From: Bacilli bacterium
GTDB taxonomy: Bacteria; Bacillota_I; Bacilli_A; RFN20; CAG-826
Assembly (NCBI GenBank): GCA_024408295.1
Contig: JAKSVE010000001.1
Span: 21,657 to 85,656, forward strand
Direction: 5' to 3'
DNA: 64,000 nucleotides
Shown: positions 18,821-51,258 of the stretch, in pieces
How positions within the stretch are numbered: position 1 is the first letter of the stretch
Layout of the letters: the number at the start of each line of letters is the position of its first letter
Program-made: the position numbers and the translations under genes
The notes under the pieces: generated by a model
Databases searched by the model: none
The model's input: only the letters and a program-made list of their open reading frames with translations
What the model was told of the DNA's origin: nothing

Positions 18821-18906
18821 TGGTGCCCGGGACCGGACTCGAACCGGTATGGTATTGCTACCGAGGGATTTTAAGTCCCTTGCGTCTACCATTTCGCCAC
18901 CCGGGC
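18821..18906 (-). tRNA. tRNA-Leu (anticodon TAA), CCA encoded
   Basis: GCCCGGGTGGCGAAATGG...anticodon loop CTTAAAA...long variable arm...GGTTCGAGTCCGGTCCCGGGCACCA. Confidence 0.93.
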
Positions 18907-18915
18907 ATAATTCGA

Positions 18916-18990
18916 TGGTCCCCCGTGACGGGCTCGAACCGTCGACCCCTTGATTAAAAGTCAAGTGCTCTACCACTGAGCTAACGGAGG
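18916..18990 (-). tRNA. tRNA-Lys (anticodon TTT), CCA encoded
   Basis: TAGCTCAGTGGTAGAGC D-arm, CTTGA-CTTTTAA-TCAAG anticodon arm, GGTTCGAGCC T-loop. Confidence 0.92.
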
Positions 18991-18995
18991 ATGCA

Positions 18996-19071
18996 TGGCT
19001 GGGGTAACTGGATTCGAACCAGTGCGTAACAGAGTCAAAGTCTGTTGCCTTAACCACTTGGCGACACCCCA
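18996..19071 (-). tRNA. tRNA-Gln (anticodon TTG), CCA encoded
   Basis: TGGGGTGTCGCCAAGTGGTTAAGGC..., ACAGA-CTTTGAC-TCTGT, GGTTCGAATCC. Confidence 0.92.
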
Positions 19072-19077
19072 AAAGGG

Positions 19078-19161
19078 TGGTGGGCGAAGATGGATTCGAA
19101 CCACCGAACCCGAAGGAACAGATTTACAGTCTGCCGCGTTTGGCCACTTCGCTATTCGCCC
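19078..19161 (-). tRNA. tRNA-Tyr (anticodon GTA), long variable arm, CCA encoded
   Basis: GGGCGAATAGCGAAGTGG..., loop CTGTAAA, GGTTCGAATCC, acceptor TTCGCCCACCA. Confidence 0.92.
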
Positions 19162-19193
19162 ATTTTTTGCCACACGTTTATCCTCCACGAGGC

Positions 19194-19268
19194 TGGTGGA
19201 TGCTATAGGGTTCGAACCTATGACCCCCGCCTTGTAAGGGCGATGCTCTCCCGCTGAGCTAAGCATCC
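19194..19268 (-). tRNA. tRNA-Val (anticodon TAC), CCA encoded
   Basis: GGATGCTTAGCTCAGCGGGAGAGC, loop CTTACAA, GGTTCGAACCC. Confidence 0.92.
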
Positions 19269-32033: not shown

Positions 32034-32117
32034 TGGTGCGGGAAATGAGACTCGAACTCACAAGGATCTCTCCATACGCCCCTCAAACGTACGCGTTTAC
32101 CATTTCGCCATCCCCGC
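32034..32117 (-). tRNA. tRNA-Leu (anticodon GAG), CCA encoded
   Basis: GCGGGGATGGCGAAATGG..., TACGT-TTGAGGG-GCGTA, long variable arm, GAGTTCGAGTCTC, CCGCACCA. Confidence 0.9.
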
Positions 32118-37346: not shown

Positions 37347-37658
37347 ATGAAGAAATCCCTGACCAAGAAAACGATACAAGGAAGAGAATACTTCTATCTT
37401 TGCTATAGGACTAAAGGCAAACTTACCACCAAGTATCTCGGCACTGTTGATAGTCCTAAATACAAGAAGTATCTTTTGAGTCTGACCAAAACCGGCGCGA
37501 ATTACGGGTTAAGACGTTCAAGAATCGATAACTGGAAAGCAGGGGTTCCTATTGCCTATATTGAGGATTCCTACATCGTTCTAGAATACAAGAACGGAGT
37601 AAAGGAATATCTCGATTCGAAGGAAAACGTCAAGAAGGTGGTGTTCCCAAATGGATGA
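37347..37658 (+). CDS. hypothetical small basic protein (candidate antitoxin/partner of the downstream kinase-like gene)
   Basis: 103-aa ORF. 8-nt overlap (ATGGATGA) with the next gene. Confidence 0.6.
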   Translation: MKKSLTKKTIQGREYFYLCYRTKGKLTTKYLGTVDSPKYKKYLLSLTKTGANYGLRRSRIDNWKAGVPIAYIEDSYIVLEYKNGVKEYLDSKENVKKVVFPNG

Positions 37659-38154
37659 GGAGAAGAAGCAACTGATCATCGTCGCGGGACCTGAAGCCTC
37701 AGGAAAGAAGACCTTCGCCGAGGTCTTCAAGACCGCATTCCTCCAGGGTTTGCCTGAAGATAATCTATATAAAGGCATCATATCGGGCATGTCTTTCTAT
37801 TGTGTGTCCTCTTTATCCACTTCTGATGAGGTCAAACTAGTTAAATTAGCAAAAGAAAGAGGTTATAGAGTGACCATCTATTTCCTGTTCGCTCCACATG
37901 AGCTTTGTTTAGTGAGAGCAAGACTCCGCTCAATCGTCTCGAAGATTCCGTACAACGAAACAGAAATGAAGGCAAAATACGATTCTTCCCGCAAAAACCT
38001 TGCAGAACTGAAGACATCAACAGACATCGTCTTCTTCATTAGAAATCTCAAGGAATTCGATTTCGTTTCGGCTTTATCGCCTAGCGAATTGACCGCAAGA
38101 ACATACCAACTCACCATTCAAAAGGTCCAACTTTCGGTTGAATTACCGGAGTAA
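37651..38154 (+). CDS. zeta-toxin/COG4185-like P-loop kinase family protein (short, Walker A slightly degenerate)
   Basis: LIIVAGPEASGKKT Walker A-like. ERGYRVTIYFLFAPHELCLVRARLR matches the E-G-Y-x-V..F..l.s.EL...R core of zeta-like kinases. Confidence 0.6.
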   Translation: MDEEKKQLIIVAGPEASGKKTFAEVFKTAFLQGLPEDNLYKGIISGMSFYCVSSLSTSDEVKLVKLAKERGYRVTIYFLFAPHELCLVRARLRSIVSKIPYNETEMKAKYDSSRKNLAELKTSTDIVFFIRNLKEFDFVSALSPSELTARTYQLTIQKVQLSVELPE

Positions 38155-43522: not shown

Positions 43523-43574
43523 GATGAAACCATTTATTGATTGACATTATTCCTTGGTTAAATACCATTTAATT

Positions 43575-46500
43575 ATGGATACATTTAATTTGCCCCTAAC
43601 TTTAACTGACCTCACTGACAATAGCGTTATTGATTTGAATTGTGCTGTCGCAATTTCAGAAATTAAAGCGACCGTTTCTCTATATGACCTCGGTCCTAGG
43701 ATACTGAATAGAGCGCGGTTGTTCATGCCTGTGAATGTTGCGGCTTCGTTGGCTCGCATAAGCTGCTTTGCTACAGGATGTTATATTGATGTTGCCGAAA
43801 TCATTGAGATAGATGGTGTATACTATGCCATTTTTGACATTACCAATCGTTTAATTCACTTGAGTTCGGGAAATATCGATTTGACTTTCCGCCTATCCGG
43901 AAGCGCTCCGGGAATCCAATTTGATTTTACCCCCGGGATAGCGGAGGCATTTGTCCAGGCAGAGACGAGGGAAGCTATTTTCTTACCAAAGGAGACTATT
44001 TCCCTAATTTCTTCTCTGAATGATTCGTTTGCGGTTTCAGTCACTCCGATTAATTCTTCTGTTAGTGTTGTTAGACCCCTGTTCAGAGGATTGTTAAAAG
44101 AAGAATACTGTCTTGTTTACAATGCATTTTACAATGGCACGGCATATTCTTCCGTTTTTCCTCTAGGATGGGGTATGAGCGAATTGCCTGAATGGGATGA
44201 CGATGAAAAAGTGCTCTACGATGGCGAAAAGAGACCGATAAAGTTCGTACCGACTCTTAATAACCAAAACGTTCTAATAGATTCAATGGGCAGTAGAATA
44301 TGCGCAAAGCTGATGTCTTCTACCGTTGAGATAACCAAGATTGGCGAGGACGGTGCTATCGTATTTGACAGAAACTCGGGCAGGATTTCGTCAAAAACTT
44401 CTTTTGGAAGGATTACTTCGTTTGCGTATCAGACGGGTAGAATCGTGATTTCCGACCCATACGGGAATGTGATTTCCATTCGTAGAGTGCTTAACCAGCT
44501 CCTCATCTCCCTAAACAGTGGGGATATATCATTTTCTTGCGACATCTATGGTCCGTCTCAAGTTTCTATATTTGAACAATCTGCTGGTGTTGGGCGAGGT
44601 TCTGAGACGATTACGTATGGAAATTATGGGAGAGTGATCTCTGTCGAATCGTTTGACGGGGAGAAAATAGAGCTTGAATATTTTTCCAGTGGGAAAATTA
44701 AAAAAATATGCAAGAGAAGCGCAACGGGTGAGTCTTTTGACAGTTCTGAATTTTCCCATTATTCTGATTCATTTTCTATTACCGATGAATATGGGAAAAC
44801 TATTGCGTATCGCTTTGACGATTCCCTTGAGATAGTGTCATCTTTTGATGCTTCATCGGGAAATAGATTATTTATTGGCAAGCGAAACGCGACTGACGAT
44901 GATTACGTCATGGCCGACGACCCAGTCGTTCTGCTGAGTGATGATGGCCACGATTTTATCTCTGTAACAGGCATTAATAATCCAAATCATTCGGTGGGAG
45001 GTTCTGAAGGCATTCACGCCACTATCGAAGGAGCTGTAATCAACGACTCGGAGGAATATATGCTCTCATTGGTCGTATACGGCCATGCCCCTTCTCCGTC
45101 TAGATCTGGCGCGAACTGTAGAGGAGTTGAAGTGTCAGTTCGCTTAGAATACGGAAGAAGCGGACCACAGCCGTTGCAACCAGATAATATAAAAATTGAA
45201 GCCGACCGATATAATGTCGTTTGCGCTAGCTTACCAATAAAATCTTCGTACCAAGGTCGTCCGCTTACCTCTGTAAGTGCATATTTAATAGTTACGGATG
45301 AGTCTTATTCCACTTTTGTCTTATTTGCAACCATTACGAGGGCGACTAAGATTAAGAGATCCTTTGTATATTTTGAAAATGAGTCCGAAGATTTAAACCA
45401 TCTTCGCATATTCAATCCATCGAGAATTATTGGGACCGACGGTATAGACCTGGTCGGAAGGGATATAAGAGTCACGCAATCGGACGCTGTTTCCAATATG
45501 TATTCGTCCATGAATGGCAATGATATCGTATTTTTTGATGATGGGAAATATGCAGTATATGGCATCTCCGTGCGCTATTTTGACGGCCAATACCGTTTAT
45601 CATCTAATGCCGATTTCTCTTTTTCTTCCAATGTATCCTCCGAATGCGTAAGTGTTACAAGGTATGTCCGTGAAGGACTTAGGCTGAACGTGGAGTCGAT
45701 ATTATTCTCTCGCAATACCCAAGACGTGAGAAAAAACTTTGTGATGCTCGACAATTTAGGCAGGATTATCCGGGAAGAGTGTGACTCATCCGAAACTGTA
45801 TACCGTTATAATTCTAGCGGATTAATAGAATCTGTATCTCAAATTGGTCAGGGTTCAACGGAATATTATTACGACGATAGCGATAGGCTTATCTCAGAGC
45901 AGCATTCTAATAGATCATTATCCTTCGCTGTGTTCTATGCGTATTACGGGAATTATGAACGAGCATGTTTCTCCCAAAGGAGCGGATGCCCATACGAATA
46001 TTTCGAATTTAGTGACGGATATGGTCCAATGAGTTCGTTGATTCGATGGTTCGGGACAAACTACTTTACGCGACACCAGGATGGTAGAATCGCATCAGCC
46101 AGCGACGGAAATCGTGTCGCCTCATTTGGTTACAATCATAAGAAAGAATGTATAGGGGCTTCGTGCTCTGGGGCAATAGAGAGAATTGATTCCGAAACTC
46201 AAACGGAAACCAGATGGCTGCTCAATTCATATTCCTGTGTGATAAGTAGAGACGAATACGGGAGACCGTACGAATACAGTGTAAACGGTACTCTAAAATC
46301 CAGACTGATATATTCCGACACGGATATATACACTAATTATTTTGATATAACGTATGATGACGAGAGAATCCATTCCTCCAACTCATCAAAACTCATTTTT
46401 AGATTCGAGACACTCGATAGTACGATGACGCATTATCTCTATGATTCATTTGGCCGCGTGATAGACGTTGACGTCATGGAGAGCGAATCATTGAGGCAAT

Positions 46501-48308
46501 GCCAAACTTCATTGAGGTTCAATGATTTCGGCGAGCTTTCCTCTAGACGTTTTTCGTCCAGGCTTCTTGGGGACGTTGTGATTGTTGAAAATTTTTCATA
46601 TTCCCTAGGCGGGAGACTAAGTGGTCATGAGTCATCTGTTGAAGAAGAGTATGCGCAAACGTCTTGTCTAGATTGTGTGGAATATGATTATTTAGGCGCG
46701 GTTGTCGGAAGAACAAGAACATGTGGTGAATTATATCTATCCGAGTCTTCATCGTACTATATTCAAACGATAGATGCCGAAGATTTCAAGGTGTCGTCGG
46801 TTGAAATTTCGGTTTGTGGGCGTTCCGTATGTGGTTTCTCAGTAAAGAGGGATTCTTCCGGATTCATTGTCGCCGATTCGAATTCTTTTGTCGGACAAGG
46901 AGAAAAATTATATGAATATGACGACTTGCGTAGGCTGTCGAGAGTTGTCGATAGTGATGAGGGGTTGAGCATCGAGTACTCGTATAATCAGTCCGGAGAT
47001 ATTGCGAGCAAAACTATCCACGCATTTGGAGCGAATGGCGACGTCTCATCTGAAACGGTGCTTTATACGTACGATTCTCTTCACAGGATTATTAGCTACG
47101 GCAGTGAGCAAATATCGTACAACACATACGGCTATCCGACCAACTATCGTGGTATGCATATGTCTTGGGTGGCAAGGAATTTGGTTTATGCAAATCGATT
47201 TGGCAGATATGTCAGCTTCTCATATTACTCCGATGGCAGTCGTTTCAAAAAGACATTGAGTGATAAAGAAGTTACATACGTATATGACCATGATAGGCTT
47301 GCTGGCGAGAGTATAGCGTACGCAGACGGGACCGTCTGCAAAGTTGTCTATGTCCGCGGAATCGATGGTTTAGTCAGCGCATTAGTGGTGGATGGCGTCT
47401 GGCATTTCCTCGTTAGGAATCTTTTTGGCGATGTCGCCGCGATCTTGTCGCAAGACGGTTCGCTCGAATGCAGCTACCGCTATGACCCATTTGGCGTGCC
47501 GACCGTGTTGGATGCCGATGGGAATGTTGATACAAGCCTAAATTCGATTGGCAACCTCAATCCTTTCAGGTATAGGGGATATTATTATGATGTCGAGACA
47601 GGCCTCTACTGGTTATCCTCGCGTTACTATGATCCAGAGATAGGAAGATTCATAAGTCCTGATAGTGTGGATTGTCTTGATCCGACAAGCATAAACGGAT
47701 TGAACCTTTATGCATACTGCAACAATGATCCGGTGAACTACTGTGACCCTTCTGGGCACATAGCTGTATCCGCTATATTAATAGGAGCCCTTATTGGATT
47801 TGTGACCGCGTATCTATCAGATGTATTTTATAATTTCCGAGACGGAGTAGATTTATCTGATTTTAATACCTTTAAAGATAATTGGCTGAAGTACATCGGT
47901 TCAACAATCGGCGGTGCGGTTGGGGGCCTTGGATCTGGCTTGCTTACAACGGCACTTGCGAGTGGATTGGGGAACGTTATTGAAGCATCTTTTGCTGGTG
48001 ATATTAAATCCTTTGGTGATGTTTTTCTTCAATTTTCGATAGGTGCTGTAATAGGCGGAATTGGTTTTGGGGTTAGTAAAGTCATTTCTTCGCATTTTGC
48101 AAACAAAAAAATATACGGATTATTGGGAAACCTTTCAGATAATGCTAGGGTTAACAAAAGGCTCGCAAATTTGGGTTATAAGAATTTGAAAATAGGTCGT
48201 GATGGATTTGCTAAAGTGTATTCTACTTTGTTTCAAGATTATGGATTTAATCTTTTGAAAGACTGCATATCGTATTCGTACGATTTTGCTACCGGTCTAA
48301 TATTTTGA
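43575..48308 (+). CDS. RHS/YD-repeat polymorphic toxin-like protein with glycine-zipper membrane C-terminal domain
   Basis: Numerous YD repeats. RHS core ...RYRGYYYDVETGLYWLSSRYYDPEIGRFISPD...NLYAYCNNDPVNYCDPSGH, followed by a 182-aa hydrophobic Gly-rich tip. ATG 43575 is preferred over in-frame TTG 43554, which lies inside the putative promoter. Confidence 0.85.
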   Translation: MDTFNLPLTLTDLTDNSVIDLNCAVAISEIKATVSLYDLGPRILNRARLFMPVNVAASLARISCFATGCYIDVAEIIEIDGVYYAIFDITNRLIHLSSGNIDLTFRLSGSAPGIQFDFTPGIAEAFVQAETREAIFLPKETISLISSLNDSFAVSVTPINSSVSVVRPLFRGLLKEEYCLVYNAFYNGTAYSSVFPLGWGMSELPEWDDDEKVLYDGEKRPIKFVPTLNNQNVLIDSMGSRICAKLMSSTVEITKIGEDGAIVFDRNSGRISSKTSFGRITSFAYQTGRIVISDPYGNVISIRRVLNQLLISLNSGDISFSCDIYGPSQVSIFEQSAGVGRGSETITYGNYGRVISVESFDGEKIELEYFSSGKIKKICKRSATGESFDSSEFSHYSDSFSITDEYGKTIAYRFDDSLEIVSSFDASSGNRLFIGKRNATDDDYVMADDPVVLLSDDGHDFISVTGINNPNHSVGGSEGIHATIEGAVINDSEEYMLSLVVYGHAPSPSRSGANCRGVEVSVRLEYGRSGPQPLQPDNIKIEADRYNVVCASLPIKSSYQGRPLTSVSAYLIVTDESYSTFVLFATITRATKIKRSFVYFENESEDLNHLRIFNPSRIIGTDGIDLVGRDIRVTQSDAVSNMYSSMNGNDIVFFDDGKYAVYGISVRYFDGQYRLSSNADFSFSSNVSSECVSVTRYVREGLRLNVESILFSRNTQDVRKNFVMLDNLGRIIREECDSSETVYRYNSSGLIESVSQIGQGSTEYYYDDSDRLISEQHSNRSLSFAVFYAYYGNYERACFSQRSGCPYEYFEFSDGYGPMSSLIRWFGTNYFTRHQDGRIASASDGNRVASFGYNHKKECIGASCSGAIERIDSETQTETRWLLNSYSCVISRDEYGRPYEYSVNGTLKSRLIYSDTDIYTNYFDITYDDERIHSSNSSKLIFRFETLDSTMTHYLYDSFGRVIDVDVMESESLRQCQTSLRFNDFGELSSRRFSSRLLGDVVIVENFSYSLGGRLSGHESSVEEEYAQTSCLDCVEYDYLGAVVGRTRTCGELYLSESSSYYIQTIDAEDFKVSSVEISVCGRSVCGFSVKRDSSGFIVADSNSFVGQGEKLYEYDDLRRLSRVVDSDEGLSIEYSYNQSGDIASKTIHAFGANGDVSSETVLYTYDSLHRIISYGSEQISYNTYGYPTNYRGMHMSWVARNLVYANRFGRYVSFSYYSDGSRFKKTLSDKEVTYVYDHDRLAGESIAYADGTVCKVVYVRGIDGLVSALVVDGVWHFLVRNLFGDVAAILSQDGSLECSYRYDPFGVPTVLDADGNVDTSLNSIGNLNPFRYRGYYYDVETGLYWLSSRYYDPEIGRFISPDSVDCLDPTSINGLNLYAYCNNDPVNYCDPSGHIAVSAILIGALIGFVTAYLSDVFYNFRDGVDLSDFNTFKDNWLKYIGSTIGGAVGGLGSGLLTTALASGLGNVIEASFAGDIKSFGDVFLQFSIGAVIGGIGFGVSKVISSHFANKKIYGLLGNLSDNARVNKRLANLGYKNLKIGRDGFAKVYSTLFQDYGFNLLKDCISYSYDFATGLIF

Positions 48309-48322
48309 TTGGAGGGACAACT

Positions 48323-48961
48323 GTGGTTCTGTCATTTCTAATTATTATTGATTTTGCCTTATGTATCTTATTACTTGCACTGCTTGTTGCGGTTGCATTT
48401 ACTAGCTATTTTTATTACTGCATAGGTATATTTGCGTTGCTTTTGTTCACTTATCTTTTGGGCAGTACATTTTTTCACATCTCCTCGAAAAGGGCATTGA
48501 TCGGCAAGGAAGATAATTATTACAATTTTCCAAAATATTATGAACGCGAGATAGAGGAGATAACTGTGTGCAAGAAAAAGAACATTTGGGAGATGCACAT
48601 CGGTGGTAATACTATAAATTTTGTATTTGGTCACTACTTGTTTCAAAAGAGTTTCATAAGAGCGTATGTAGTCCGAAATTTAATGTATAAACACGTCGAC
48701 AGAAAAAGAGAGCTTAGGAATCTTATGAATTACAGATTCCAATCGCCAAACAGCAATAACGTGGATATAGTTTTCATCTCCGAAGATAAAAGGAAAAGAA
48801 TTAGAGTGTGCAATTGCGGACAAATTCAGAACACCATTTTATCTAGAGCCATAACAAAATCTCATTTTTACAAACTATATTTTTCGAATGTGACATATTA
48901 CGCTTTCATGAATCAAATCGTTCATATTAATGAAAAAATATATGATAGTTTTGTAGACTAA
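48323..48961 (+). CDS. two-TM membrane protein, candidate cognate immunity protein
   Basis: SD GGAGGG 6 nt before GTG 48323, 15 nt after the RHS stop. Two N-terminal TM helices and a ~150-aa basic cytosolic part. Very AT-rich. Confidence 0.65.
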   Translation: MVLSFLIIIDFALCILLLALLVAVAFTSYFYYCIGIFALLLFTYLLGSTFFHISSKRALIGKEDNYYNFPKYYEREIEEITVCKKKNIWEMHIGGNTINFVFGHYLFQKSFIRAYVVRNLMYKHVDRKRELRNLMNYRFQSPNSNNVDIVFISEDKRKRIRVCNCGQIQNTILSRAITKSHFYKLYFSNVTYYAFMNQIVHINEKIYDSFVD

Positions 48962-49198
48962 TCTTCTGTGAGACAAACGTACATTCTTAAATCGTGACAC
49001 AGCCATCAGTCTATGAATAATGTGAAGCAAATAGTTGGAATAGCGATATTAGAATTGTTGTGGAAGAACTCTTCTGGCGGCCAGTGCCTAATATGTGAGC
49101 TTTGGAATGTTGAGCGAACAGGGGATTGCAACTGCAAGATATGTTCTCTTTAGTATAGTTTGCCGTGTGACATTAGAACGTTTTTGCGGAGTTTAATG

Positions 49199-50026
49199 TC
49201 ATGCTATATCGTCAAAATGCAGTTCTGATATTTCGTTGGCAGGTAGCATCTTCTCTAATTCTATTGCTATCCCGTCATTGTTATTGTCTTTTTCTGTGAT
49301 TATTGCATCTTCAGGGATTATTTCTAGGTTTGTGTTGCTCATTAGATAGCGAACACCAGCCTCATTAAGCATCTCCAAATCATTGACCGAATCACCAAAA
49401 GCAATCGTGTCTTCTTTCTTTATCCCTAGCTGTTCTTGAATGTATTTAAGACAAGAGCCCTTGTTGACTCCGTCGATATATAACTCGCTATAGGAGGAGC
49501 CACACCATTTACGCCACTTTATTGGGTAGTGGGAGTTAGCAATCTCCTCAAGTTTTCCTAAATCTTTGGCGTTACAGTCGAATATAGCCGTATAGACGTC
49601 TTCCTTGAGTATTTCCTTGAAATCTCCATAAATCGGCCTCATATAAGGGAAATATGCATTAAGATATTCTTTACGGAACATTAAGTATGTTTGACTCTCA
49701 GATTCTGAGCAGAGGTCGGTAATGATACCTTTTGCTCTATCAACAATATCAAGCACATCATCTTTCTTGAGGATATATTTTAGTTCCTTGAAAGACGAAT
49801 CGCATGGATTGAAGGTATGCATTCCGTTTAAGGTGATTACAGGGCCGTTGCATCCTAGGTCCTCATAGTAATCTTTTATGGCTCTCCAAGGACGCCCGCT
49901 TGAAATGACGACGATATGCCCGTCTTTAATTGCCGTCTGTAGGACCTCTTTGGTTTTGTTTGTTATCTGGTGCTTAGAATTCAGGAGTGTTCCATCCATA
50001 TCCAAGGCTATTAATTTCTTATTCAT
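49199..50026 (-). CDS. Cof-type HAD-IIB phosphatase
   Basis: DMDGTLL motif I, GDSVNDLEM motif IV. Start taken at MNKKLIALDMDGTLL. Confidence 0.85.
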   Translation of the reverse strand: MNKKLIALDMDGTLLNSKHQITNKTKEVLQTAIKDGHIVVISSGRPWRAIKDYYEDLGCNGPVITLNGMHTFNPCDSSFKELKYILKKDDVLDIVDRAKGIITDLCSESESQTYLMFRKEYLNAYFPYMRPIYGDFKEILKEDVYTAIFDCNAKDLGKLEEIANSHYPIKWRKWCGSSYSELYIDGVNKGSCLKYIQEQLGIKKEDTIAFGDSVNDLEMLNEAGVRYLMSNTNLEIIPEDAIITEKDNNNDGIAIELEKMLPANEISELHFDDIA

Positions 50027-50160
50027 TGTCGTGACGTTAATATTCCGCACATATTCTACATACTTAACAAGCGAACGTGAATAGATGGTGAAACGGTTGG
50101 CCCTATCGTCTGACTAAGGCTGAGAACCCTATTTTCTATTATGTGTGTGCATGCGATAAT

Positions 50161-51258
50161 ATGAGCATGTCTACCCCACAGTTCCCATTTACTAATAAAG
50201 ATGTCACAACGACATTGGTGAAAAGATACTCAACCGTCTATCTAATTGTCTTAAGCATCATATCTCTATTTGAAGTCTTCATGATTGCTAGAGGCATATT
50301 CGTCTTCGATTTTGCAAGAATTAAGCACGTCCTTTATTTTGTGTCGTATATATTCTTGCTCACGATGTCTTTGGGGGAAGTCCTAATCATATTCCTGAAC
50401 AAGAAGGGGAAACTTAAAGACAGCTGGCTATTTTACTCCATGTATGCCTATTGCCTTGCGATTGTTATCTGGGCATCGTTGATATCGATTCTCGACTCTA
50501 ACGGCTCAGACATCCCATTTGTCTATTTCACCATCATCATCACTATCGCGGGATTGTTATTCATCAACCCTTGGTACTATATCTCAACGGTTCTTGCCTC
50601 ATTCACCGCCGTATTCCTAATAAGCAACAAAGATGACCTACTCTCGGGCCTTTCTGGCGGTGACCTCATCAACGACATAGTCTTTATCGTCATGTGCATA
50701 CTTGTCGCGGTTAGACAATATAAGTCCACATTGAAACAAGAGAAGTACGCCTGGACATTAAATGAGCTCAATTACACAGACCACTTAACCGGCTTAGGGA
50801 ACGAGAGAAAGTATTTCGAGGTCATCGAAAGGATTAACTCCGGCATAAGCAAAGGACGAAAGAAATTCGCTGTTACGGTAATAGATGTAAACGGAGTCAA
50901 AGTCACGAATGATAAATACGGACATAGATTCGGTTGCCATTTAATCGTCACAACCGGAAATATCCTCCCAACAATCTTCAAGTCAAGCACCTTATTCCAT
51001 ATCGGAGGAGACGAATTCGTCGGCATAATCGAGGGCGAGGATTACACTCATCTCGACGCAAGATTAAGTGAATTCAAAGAGAAGCTAGAATATTCCGATA
51101 TTGAATTTGAAGGAAAGCCGTTGTTCTTAAGTGCCGCAATCGGTATAGCAAAATGCGAAGATGAAAGCTCTTATAGAGAAGTCTTCCAAAAAGCCGATGC
51201 TGCGATGTACGAGGATAAGAAGATAGTCAAAGAGACTCACAACATTCCTAGTAGATAA
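50161..51258 (+). CDS. membrane-bound diguanylate cyclase (GGDEF domain)
   Basis: About 6 N-terminal TM helices, then LTGLGNERKYF...HIGGDEFVGI. Start uncertain: ATG 50161, or in-frame GTG 50143. Confidence 0.85.
   Translation: MSMSTPQFPFTNKDVTTTLVKRYSTVYLIVLSIISLFEVFMIARGIFVFDFARIKHVLYFVSYIFLLTMSLGEVLIIFLNKKGKLKDSWLFYSMYAYCLAIVIWASLISILDSNGSDIPFVYFTIIITIAGLLFINPWYYISTVLASFTAVFLISNKDDLLSGLSGGDLINDIVFIVMCILVAVRQYKSTLKQEKYAWTLNELNYTDHLTGLGNERKYFEVIERINSGISKGRKKFAVTVIDVNGVKVTNDKYGHRFGCHLIVTTGNILPTIFKSSTLFHIGGDEFVGIIEGEDYTHLDARLSEFKEKLEYSDIEFEGKPLFLSAAIGIAKCEDESSYREVFQKADAAMYEDKKIVKETHNIPSR

Follow-up and report, generated by a model that had tools for sequence, protein, structure and literature searches.

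An RHS protein with a conserved glycine-zipper tip and a candidate two-transmembrane immunity partner: a putative caged membrane toxin

Introduction

The rhs locus in the 64,000-nucleotide stretch of Bacilli DNA analyzed here (the window) raises the question of what a short, glycine-rich C-terminal tip does at the end of a large RHS-repeat protein. In particular, the tip might be a toxin that acts on membranes, a device that carries some other activity across a membrane, or an element that holds the repeat shell at the cell surface. To answer this question, we describe the domain anatomy and conservation of the tip, report on its confinement to RHS carriers, and examine the immunity-type gene to which it is linked. 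We consider it probable, at roughly 60%, that the locus encodes an RHS-caged, membrane-inserting and membrane-depolarizing toxin tip together with a two-transmembrane (two-TM) immunity protein, carried on a mobile cassette.

Results

The RHS protein is encoded by the open reading frame at 43554..48308 on the forward strand. Its homologue P0157, which is 96% identical, has a gene call that begins with MDSFNL, and the ATG at 43575 is therefore the likely true start of rhs (43575..48308, +; 1577 amino acids); we number residues of the protein from the TTG at 43554 (1584 amino acids), following the scheme of the initial annotation. No Shine-Dalgarno sequence precedes this ATG, and thus the rhs mRNA may be leaderless. 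A weak promoter-like site (TTGACA-16-TACCAT; 43541..43568, +; 10 of 12 matches) stops 6 nt before the ATG, and sites of this type occur across the region no more often than expected by chance.

The YD/RHS-repeat shell extends over 45807..47480 (+), as far as repeats are detectable, with matches to PF05593 (E=1.2e-7) and TIGR01643 (E=4e-7) from aa 752-787, and the solved shells of Rhs, Tc and teneurin proteins align to aa 1112-1407. The shell is followed by the RHS-associated core (47481..47759, +; TIGR03696 at aa 1310-1402, 80.3 bits compared to a cut-off of 32.5), which comprises the plug and the aspartyl autoprotease, and in which both Asp-Pro motifs of the self-cleaving protease (YDPEIG and CDPSGH) are kept, directly before the first helix of the tip. 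DPSGH occupies aa 1398-1402 (positions 47745-47759), and we predict a self-cleavage site after H1402 by analogy with Tse5 of Pseudomonas aeruginosa, which is cleaved between L1168 and I1169 (PMC10684867). A repeat shell and a core that ends in DPxG...DPxG before a variable tip are two marks of an RHS/YD polymorphic toxin, and both are present in this protein.

We looked for a delivery route in the protein and around it. The N-terminal 643 aa recovered one near-identical fragment and no other relatives, and this end of the protein displays no signal peptide or hydrophobic segment. A Pfam search of the protein gave no match to PAAR or LXG domains, and there was likewise no match to CdiA. The scanned ORFs of the 64-kb window include no T6SS, T7SS, other secretion or phage genes; those that flank the rhs locus are all housekeeping genes. 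Thus, neither an LXG domain nor T7SS genes among the scanned ORFs, the marks of an LXG/T7SS toxin, were found.

The tip consists of the 182 aa after DPSGH (aa 1403-1584; window positions 47760-48305). We number its residues with the H of DPSGH as residue 1, and we give hydrophobicity as the Hessa scale summed over 19 residues. The initial annotation held that the tip opens with a hydrophobic helix, which we confirmed: helix 1, IAVSAILIGALIGFVTAYL (47760..47816, +), is a strongly hydrophobic TM-type segment (-1.0 kcal/mol, which is transmembrane strength) that contains G10xxxG14 and in which I9 and G10 are each 90% conserved among 40 aligned tips. It is followed by an acidic polar loop with a conserved D22, DVFYNFRDGVDLSDFNTFKDNWLK (47817..47891, +), by a first glycine-zipper helical hairpin, YIGSTIGGAVGGLGSGLLTTALASGLGNVIEASFA (47892..47996, +; zippers G48-G52-G56 and G53-G57-G61), and by a second glycine-zipper helix, FGDVFLQFSIGAVIGGIGFGVSKVISSH (48012..48095, +; G96/G100 and G101/G105). 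The two GxxxG-rich segments described initially are thus present, and their zippers are conserved, but these segments are only marginally hydrophobic (+4.1 and +3.6 kcal/mol, respectively), such that strong hydrophobicity is confined to one of the three hydrophobic segments of the tip. The remainder had been taken for a soluble tail of ~85 aa; this needs correction, as the tail is about 70 aa long (tip residues 114-183; 48096..48305, +) and is not plainly soluble. It is basic (net charge +5) and amphipathic, with three predicted amphipathic helices, a fairly hydrophobic C-terminus and a conserved N..VNKRL..G...LKIG..G motif.

The zippers are conserved in the alignment of 40 tip sequences, which share 21-62% identity. 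Zipper positions are occupied by G, A or S in about 80-100% of the 40 sequences at most positions, with G61 as the main exception (62%): in the first hairpin small residues are otherwise 78-100% conserved at most positions, and 80-90% of sequences have a small residue at G96, G100, G101, G103 and G105. Moreover, a contiguous GxxxGxxxG lies in a predicted helix and is kept among relatives, as expected of a glycine-zipper motif. The window tip itself contains seven GxxxG motifs, a modest excess over the 3.5 found in composition-preserving shuffles (p about 0.04); we regard the conservation, as read from the alignment, as the stronger evidence. With the 40-sequence alignment, AF2 produced an all-helical model of seven helices (residues 2-27, 39-56, 62-80, 86-123, 129-138, 150-161 and 164-182; pLDDT 79, pTM 0.52), in which the tail lies in one helical bundle together with the TM helices; the confidence of this model depends wholly on alignment depth, since the pLDDT was 38 with 7 sequences (unusable) compared to 79 with 40.

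We searched for an enzyme, a fold or a named family. No Pfam or NCBIfam family reached its cut-off with the window tip, and the same was true of Pfam for all 40 family members. Two tip profiles (A3 and A4) found no sequence relative among all PDB chains at E <= 10, and Foldseek of the 40-sequence AF2 model gave no match with E < 1 in either PDB or BFVD, so that no viral structural match was found in the latter. No column of the alignment is conserved as His, Cys, Glu or Ser; the sole conserved polar residues are D22, Y46, N129, N133 and K145. Several candidates were set aside. PF09154 (Alpha-amy_C_pro) matched 4 of the 40 members below its cut-off, which we consider noise; IrtA, Mep2 and PsaL, from the PDB profile searches, were low-complexity TM matches and were rejected as compositional; and the top PDB rows from Foldseek, complex I membrane subunits of 140 residues with a TM-score of about 0.36-0.41, reflect a generic helical-bundle resemblance. 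The initial annotation had reported no enzyme motif and no assignable named toxin family, and had proposed profile searches and Foldseek of a structural model as the check. Both statements hold: Pfam, NCBIfam, PDB and Foldseek gave no match, there are no conserved catalytic-type residues, and the tip falls in no known enzymatic toxin family. Its description of the tip as a glycine-zipper multi-helix membrane domain likewise agrees with the conserved zippers, the helix of TM strength and the all-helical model. We conclude that the tip is, on this indirect support, a conserved glycine-zipper helical domain of membrane type that carries no enzyme signature.

A profile search of 1.84 billion representative proteins placed the tip in a family that comprises at least 150 clusters (50% identity), of which 71 have E <= 1e-10. 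Almost all members with upstream sequence come after the RHS core end NLYAYCxNNPVxxxDPxG, and the hosts are human-gut Bacillota, Mollicutes-like bacteria and one Anaeroplasmataceae phage. The metK of the window shares just 57% identity with its Anaeroplasmatales counterpart. A plasmid search gave no match, and two tip queries against IMG/VR contigs recovered no relatives. The tip also occurs as a short orphan cassette with a partner gene, and it swaps with unrelated tips in rhs arrays; the rhs arrays at L001 and L014 contain several different orphan cassettes, made up of a tip and an immunity-type gene.

A candidate immunity gene lies immediately downstream of rhs (48323..48961, +; 212 aa from the GTG at 48323). 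Its Shine-Dalgarno sequence, GGAGGG (48311..48316, +), begins 2 nt past the rhs stop, with the GTG 6 nt further, and an independent gene call in a Logan contig yielded the same 212-aa product. The protein has two N-terminal TM helices (at about 48335-48391 and 48419-48475; Hessa values -3.5 and -1.2) and a basic domain of ~150 aa, which is predicted to be soluble and, by the positive-inside rule, cytoplasmic. We found a two-TM homologue of this gene directly after the tip in 7 of the 8 related loci with enough downstream sequence (L010, L006, L001, L002/L003, L008, L004 and L014); in the eighth locus, L007, a transposase gene stands in its place. This arrangement supports the assignment of the downstream gene as a candidate immunity gene of the cognate type for a polymorphic toxin. 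Furthermore, the linkage in 7 of 8 loci and the orphan tip-plus-immunity cassettes together support the polymorphic-toxin reading and disfavor a membrane anchor. The proposal of a membrane-inserting effector on an RHS protein is partly supported: the genetics (two-TM gene, orphan cassettes) agree with it, and a single segment is strongly hydrophobic.

The family falls into two subgroups: 49 tips have a tail of the window type, and 36 have the same N-terminal module followed by an unrelated tail of ~70-80 aa. Both subgroups have immunity proteins that combine two TM helices with a soluble domain, but these proteins are unrelated, and hhalign detected no similarity between those of one subgroup and those of the other. 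Since unrelated immunity proteins go with different tails, immunity specificity tracks the tail. Thus, the tail matters, and a simple pore model gives no reason why.

Discussion

We propose the following mechanism for the caged toxin. The YD-repeat cage encoded by rhs would be cut by its own C-terminal core, most likely after DPSGH, and the 182-aa tip would stay enclosed after the cut; if so, the cage could chaperone a hydrophobic cargo. The tip would be a non-enzymatic toxin that inserts into membranes, with helix 1 as the true transmembrane segment. The glycine-zipper segments appear too polar to insert alone, and might pack against each other or against other copies of the tip through their small-residue faces, forming an ion-conducting or proteolipidic pore. 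We infer that such a pore would cost a neighboring cell its membrane potential. The two-TM protein, probably co-transcribed with rhs, would protect the producer in one of two ways: it may bind the tip, in or at the membrane, or it may capture the tail. Toxin and immunity gene would make up a mobile polymorphic-toxin cassette, and they occur in full-length genes, in orphan modules of rhs arrays and on one phage. A more speculative extension, which we hold to be doubtful, is a secretion-independent weapon against wall-less gut bacteria: cages encoded on temperate phages or mobile cassettes would be freed by lysis of the producer or lysogen, and the tip would insert straight into the exposed membranes of Mollicutes-like neighbors that do not have the prophage-encoded two-TM immunity protein, to the kin-selective gain of lysogens.

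The closest functional precedent for the caged toxin is Tse5 (PA2684, RhsP1) with its immunity protein Tsi5. Tse5 likewise consists of an Rhs cage, a C-terminal aspartyl autoprotease and a non-enzymatic hydrophobic tip of ~150-180 aa, and its C-terminal tip, Tse5-CT, is an Rhs-encapsulated integral-membrane pore former that inserts into membranes, forms ion-conducting pores and depolarizes cells; two TM helices are predicted in its immunity protein (PMC9637101, PMC10684867). Toxin and immunity correspond point for point in their architecture, with the window side known by prediction: the tip is hydrophobic and non-enzymatic and has TM as well as amphipathic helices, and its candidate immunity protein has two TM helices. 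In contrast, the tips share no detectable similarity of sequence or fold (at E <= 10 in PDB searches with profiles A3 and A4, where the presence of the whole Tse5-CT in the deposited chains is unconfirmed), and the Tse5 entry 8cp6 was matched via its Rhs core only. Nor was the window tip found to resemble any other characterized pore former in sequence or fold. Tse5 has a PAAR-like N-terminus, delivery by VgrG and the T6SS and a Gram-negative host, whereas the window protein has no PAAR domain, T6SS or recognizable export signal and its family resides in gut Bacillota, Mollicutes-like bacteria and one phage. The window immunity protein also differs from Tsi5 in its additional soluble domain of ~150 aa. 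The initial annotation did not mention the Tse5 precedent for an RHS-caged pore former (PMC9637101, PMC10684867).

An RHS cage that holds a pore-forming tip, paired with two-TM immunity, is thus already known from Tse5, and the locus overturns no existing view because that concept is established. The novelty lies in the sequence family and in the bacteria that host it, in its occurrence on an Anaeroplasmataceae phage, and in the fact that no secretion signal or system can be recognized. To our knowledge, Tse5, a T6SS effector of a Gram-negative bacterium, has so far been the sole studied case of an RHS-caged pore former. The locus brings to light a family, as yet unnamed, that comprises at least 150 clusters of this design and has no recognizable export route. 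If the caged-toxin reading is correct, the principle of the cage as chaperone for membrane toxins reaches single-membrane or wall-less bacteria, competition among poorly studied wall-less gut bacteria gains a handle, and the toxin-immunity pair is suited to dissecting tail-specific immunity.

We considered that the tip might instead combine an entry module with a cargo, such that tip residues 1-113 permeabilize or translocate while the basic 70-aa tail is an effector on a cytoplasmic target, neutralized by the cytoplasmic domain of the immunity protein. This zipper module carrying a tail across the membrane is the main rival, although we judge it unlikely. The two subgroups fit it well, with one shared N-terminal module, unrelated tails and immunity specificity that tracks the tail type, as does the predicted cytoplasmic location of the immunity domain. 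Moreover, other RHS tips in the same arrays join a Gly-rich TM region to a clearly soluble C-terminal domain (L009:189-854), and in the T6SS effector Tde1 of Agrobacterium tumefaciens, a polymorphic effector whose glycine-zipper segment likewise acts on the target membrane, the zipper is reported to be needed to translocate a DNase domain (PMC10240207); the window tip, in contrast, has no detectable enzymatic domain. Against a cargo role, the tail is just ~70 aa long, searches gave neither a family nor a fold match for it, none of its catalytic-type residues is conserved, and its amphipathic character and hydrophobic end are more like those of a membrane-surface element; AF2 also bundles it with the TM helices. 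In addition, a tail that is a mere handle for immunity binding would account for tail-specific immunity just as well.

It is also conceivable, but highly improbable, that the tip acts in lysis: in the context of a phage or prophage, it would permeabilize the membrane of the producer itself and thereby free the signal-less RHS protein or phage progeny, with the downstream protein as an antiholin-like regulator. Holins are typically small multi-TM proteins with a charged C-terminal tail. The Anaeroplasmataceae phage (PV036447.1) encodes a full RHS protein with a family tip and a downstream gene weakly similar to the immunity gene of the window, the rhs array of L001 adjoins phage terminase and portal genes, and in 9 of the 10 carriers of more than 800 aa no signal peptide is evident (judged by eye, with some of these being N-terminally truncated gene calls). 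However, the window locus lies among housekeeping genes and not among phage genes, the searches of BFVD and IMG/VR gave no viral structural match and no relatives, and a lysis role leaves both the 1400-aa cage and the polymorphic orphan cassettes unexplained.

The weakest alternative, raised initially and in our view close to negligible, is that the TM helices are a C-terminal anchor that tethers the YD shell to a wall-less cell surface, as in teneurins, with the downstream gene encoding an unrelated membrane partner: related loci do come from genomes labeled Anaeroplasmatales or Mollicutes, in one host the division cluster is reduced as in Mollicutes and carries no peptidoglycan genes between rsmH and ftsA, and mosquito SGS1, in which predicted TM helices come after an RHS shell, was initially reported to be a surface protein (PMC9935623), but teneurins are anchored N-terminally and do not have the second catalytic Asp (PMC9935623), whereas the window RHS protein has no N-terminal TM anchor and keeps both Asp-Pro motifs before helix 1, its missing signal peptide means that a shell anchored by its C-terminus would remain cytoplasmic and not be displayed, movement as orphan cassettes with an immunity-like partner and swapping with unrelated tips are the behavior of a toxin-immunity module, and the TM helices lie inside the cage, not in a membrane, in the SGS1 structure.

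Two other comparisons bear on the caged toxin. First, EsxX of Staphylococcus aureus and the CdiA-CT ionophores are small helical C-terminal glycine-zipper toxin domains that depolarize target membranes and are neutralized by membrane immunity proteins (PMC11630599 for CDI); they are set apart by their carriers, since they ride on LXG/T7SS proteins or CdiA, whereas almost every member of the window family with upstream sequence follows an RHS core. Second, SGS1 of Aedes aegypti (PDB 8fjp) also combines an RHS/YD shell and an intact autoprotease motif with predicted TM helices inside the solved shell (PMC9935623). It differs as a salivary protein of a eukaryote, in which the TM helices take up ~300 aa and are joined by a Tox-SGS domain, and it has no immunity gene. 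We rejected homology between SGS1 and the tip and take the likeness as a hint only: tip-only profiles did not recover SGS1 in PDB searches, and the 40-sequence tip profile scored a marginal 8.0 bits against the SGS1 fragment, a value reached by 3 of 2000 shuffles. A further, doubtful possibility is that the module of helix 1 and zippers is a bacterial ancestor of the caged TM helices in mosquito SGS proteins. A phmmer alignment to SGS1 extends ~90 residues into the tip, and the first post-cleavage helix of SGS1 resembles that of the window protein (DPDGQIAVTLVLMIIGAIVGAYL vs DPSGHIAVSAILIGALIGFVTAYL).

The RHS protein and its tip domain

The rhs reading frame spans 43554..48308 on the forward strand and encodes 1584 aa when counted from TTG 43554, the numbering of the initial annotation. 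The true gene is most likely 43575..48308, since a 96%-identical fragment from another sample begins MDSFNL..., the equivalent of ATG 43575. The protein carries RHS repeats (Pfam) and an RHS-associated core (NCBIfam TIGR03696, aa 1310-1402, 80.3 bits; cut-off 32.5), which ends in ...NLYAYCNNDPVNYCDPSGH. We confirmed that 47745 is the D of DPSGH, that the tip occupies aa 1403-1584 (47760-48305, forward strand), and that the sequences originally quoted for it are correct.

Counting the H of DPSGH as residue 1, we found that helix 1 (IAVSAILIGALIGFVTAYL, tip 2-20) has a summed Hessa value of -1.0 kcal/mol and is thus a genuine transmembrane-strength segment, and that both Asp-Pro motifs of the self-cleaving protease stand before it. 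The two glycine-rich segments, with tip window minima at 50-68 (+4.1 kcal/mol) and 89-107 (+3.6 kcal/mol), are marginal, as expected for helices that enter the membrane only as hairpins or oligomers. The hydrophobic helix and two GxxxG-rich segments initially proposed were borne out, with the contiguous zippers G48-G52-G56 and G53-G57-G61, the pairs G96/G100 and G101/G105, and seven GxxxG motifs compared to 3.5 in shuffles (p about 0.04). In contrast, the tail, described as soluble and ~85 aa long, is 70 aa (tip 114-183; net charge +5), is predicted to form three amphipathic helices (hydrophobic moment 0.39-0.59), and is not simply soluble. AF2 with 40 sequences yielded a seven-helix bundle (pLDDT 79, pTM 0.52); with seven sequences the model was unusable (pLDDT 38).

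A word-indexed search returned six close relatives of the tip (48-62% identity), all located after an RHS core end, and a tip-only profile (exhaustive HMMER, 1.84 billion representative proteins) reached at least 150 clusters at E <= 1e-3, 71 of them at E <= 1e-10, with members named only "hypothetical protein". The motif NLYAYCxNNPVxxxDPxG precedes nearly all homologues for which upstream sequence is present. Across 40 aligned sequences (21-62% identity to the window), about 80-100% have G, A or S at most of the zipper glycine positions; the main exception is G61 (62%). The best-conserved columns are I9, G10, D22, Y46, G53, G57, N129, N133, K145 and G147, and no His, Cys, Glu or Ser column is conserved. 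The tip pattern goes beyond chance and is under selection, its conservation being structural rather than catalytic.

The tip matched nothing in Pfam or NCBIfam, no Pfam family scored above cut-off in any of the 40 family members, and PDB searches by sequence or profile gave compositional transmembrane matches only. Foldseek of the 40-sequence model against PDB and BFVD returned nothing below E=1. Thus, the original view that the tip has neither an enzyme motif nor a named toxin family stands, as profile searches reached no known enzymatic family.

We also noted that the first 643 aa of the RHS protein (43575-45503) have a single relative among 5.8 billion proteins, the 96%-identical fragment; this part, expected to set export or receptor binding, is therefore essentially orphan sequence. 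Between 43483 and 43575, a hairpin and T-run (GAGACG...CGTCTCTTTTTT) lie 3' of a phosphoglucomutase gene, followed by a TTGACA-16-TACCAT site that ends 6 nt before ATG 43575. There is no Shine-Dalgarno sequence for rhs, in contrast to the strong GGAGGG of the downstream gene, and the rhs mRNA may be leaderless.

A candidate immunity gene and related arrays

GGAGGG begins 2 nt after the rhs stop and GTG 48323, a further 6 nt on, opens a 212-aa protein; gene calling on a Logan contig independently gave the identical product. Its two transmembrane helices are strong (-3.5 and -1.2 kcal/mol), and a basic domain of ~150 aa follows at the C-terminus. Homologues (27-40% identity) adjoin tip homologues downstream at L010 (the same locus in another sample), L006, L001, L002/L003, L008, L004 (cut off by the contig end) and L014; at L007, a transposase gene occupies this place. 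At L015, where the tip is only 33% identical, a two-transmembrane gene of 226 aa apparently shares a YLFxKSFI...R.LRY motif with the window gene by eye, and was undetected by tblastn at E <= 0.01. Classic rhs arrays are seen at L001 and L014, where a full-length rhs precedes several short orphan tips, each paired with a small gene; one of these genes encodes a Pfam Imm40 protein. Such an arrangement is the genetic hallmark of a polymorphic toxin and its cognate immunity.

In L010, from a different sample than the 96%-identical fragment, tip and immunity protein match those of the window at 100% and 99.5% identity, respectively. G+C falls to 0.366 over 48001-50000 (tip end, immunity gene and next spacer), compared to 0.40-0.48 elsewhere, consistent with a horizontally acquired cassette. 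Other orphan tips in such arrays (L006:47-1390, L009:189-3229) are very glycine-rich and hydrophobic, one of them with a soluble C-terminal domain; a 180-aa protein, multi-transmembrane by eye, directly follows the L006 tip and is present in L009 too. These lineages may commonly carry membrane-directed tips.

Proposed mechanism and alternatives

The core of Tse5, the Rhs-caged toxin of Pseudomonas aeruginosa, cuts one residue beyond DPxG; toxicity depends on this cleavage, and the tip (roughly 16 kDa) is held in a cavity of ~32,000 cubic angstroms (PMC10684867). Tse5-CT inserts and forms an ion-conducting pore that collapses membrane potential, and two transmembrane helices are predicted in Tsi5, its immunity protein (PMC9637101). 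By analogy, we infer for the window protein that the RHS cage would cleave and then chaperone the tip, that helix 1 would insert at the target membrane, and that the zipper hairpins would pack together via small-residue faces to build an ion-conducting pore and so collapse the membrane potential. The original observation holds, and we consider a membrane-inserting effector in an RHS cage, the main proposal of the initial annotation, to be the best reading.

The family is modular: 49 tips share the whole domain, while 36 share residues 1-113 only and carry an unrelated basic tail of ~70-80 aa. The full-length members L012 and L013 of this second group have immunity-type proteins of 138-141 aa (two transmembrane helices and a soluble domain, as in the window's protein) with no profile similarity to the window immunity family, so immunity specificity tracks the tail. 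This would fit if the tail were a handle bound by the immunity protein or, as the main rival holds, cargo carried across the membrane by the zipper module, for which Tde1 offers a precedent, its glycine zipper being reported to translocate a DNase across the membrane (PMC10240207). The tail is tiny (~70 aa), amphipathic, without catalytic-type residues, and modelled within the bundle; we therefore favour the handle. The other alternative, a teneurin-like C-terminal anchor displaying the YD shell, is ruled against by topology, since the protein has no N-terminal signal peptide and the shell would remain in the cytoplasm, by retention of both Asp-Pro motifs (teneurins lack the second Asp of the autoprotease; PMC9935623), and by the toxin-immunity arrays.

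The RHS-caged membrane-toxin principle is already established. The window pair would resemble Tse5/Tsi5 in mode of working, but shows neither tip homology nor PAAR/T6SS features; glycine-zipper toxins carried by LXG proteins and CdiA are alike in principle, whereas this family is tied to RHS. The novelty lies in a moderately large toxin-immunity family, so far without a name, that occurs in gut bacteria (wall-less and Gram-positive) and in a phage. The Aedes aegypti RHS protein SGS1 likewise has transmembrane helices directly after the cleavage site, and its first helix (DPDGQIAVTLVLMIIGAIVGAYL; PDB 8fjp) closely resembles that of the window (DPSGHIAVSAILIGALIGFVTAYL), the stretch compared being 47745-48030. 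The family profile scored a marginal 8.0 bits against the SGS1 fragment, reached by 3 of 2000 shuffles; a common origin is possible.

Hosts, phage and export

Tip carriers in the species-representative genome set are MAGs labelled Anaeroplasmatales, Mollicutes, Firmicutes and Clostridium. On the metagenomic contig L015 (8460-18115), the rhs-immunity pair is flanked by mraZ-rsmH on one side and by a weak ftsA match and then ftsZ on the other. No peptidoglycan genes intervene between rsmH and the ftsA match, an arrangement that we take to be the reduced division cluster characteristic of Mollicutes, which lack a wall. Anaeroplasmataceae phage NatCom_34063 (PV036447.1, Ca. Heliusvirales; L016:7006-13182), a complete gut phage genome from human faeces, encodes a complete 1836-aa RHS protein whose tip belongs to this family (44% identical) and is preceded by one extra transmembrane helix. 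A gene of 214 aa follows downstream, with weak similarity to the window immunity gene; both products are annotated as hypothetical proteins. Ca. Heliusvirales are predominantly temperate (PMC11283538), and the L001 array adjoins terminase and portal genes.

All scanned window ORFs around rhs are housekeeping genes, with no T6SS, T7SS or phage genes among them. Nine of 10 carriers >800 aa show no obvious signal peptide on visual inspection (some gene calls are N-terminally truncated); the tenth, P0082, has a classic one. Release through lysis, that by phage included, is a speculative possibility.

Two genes past the immunity gene, 50143-51258 encodes what looks like a multi-pass membrane protein whose C-terminal domain is a GGDEF diguanylate cyclase. 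Signalling by c-di-GMP would not be expected in classical Mollicutes, so the window host may not be one. Elsewhere, a 167-aa ORF (37651-38154) matches only the C-terminal part of the Zeta toxin family (PF06414, E=3.4e-7, profile positions 102-179 of 199); it may encode a zeta-like kinase that is truncated or divergent. Five tRNA genes cluster at 18824-19268 on the reverse strand, and three others occur singly at 32037, 40562 and 63440.
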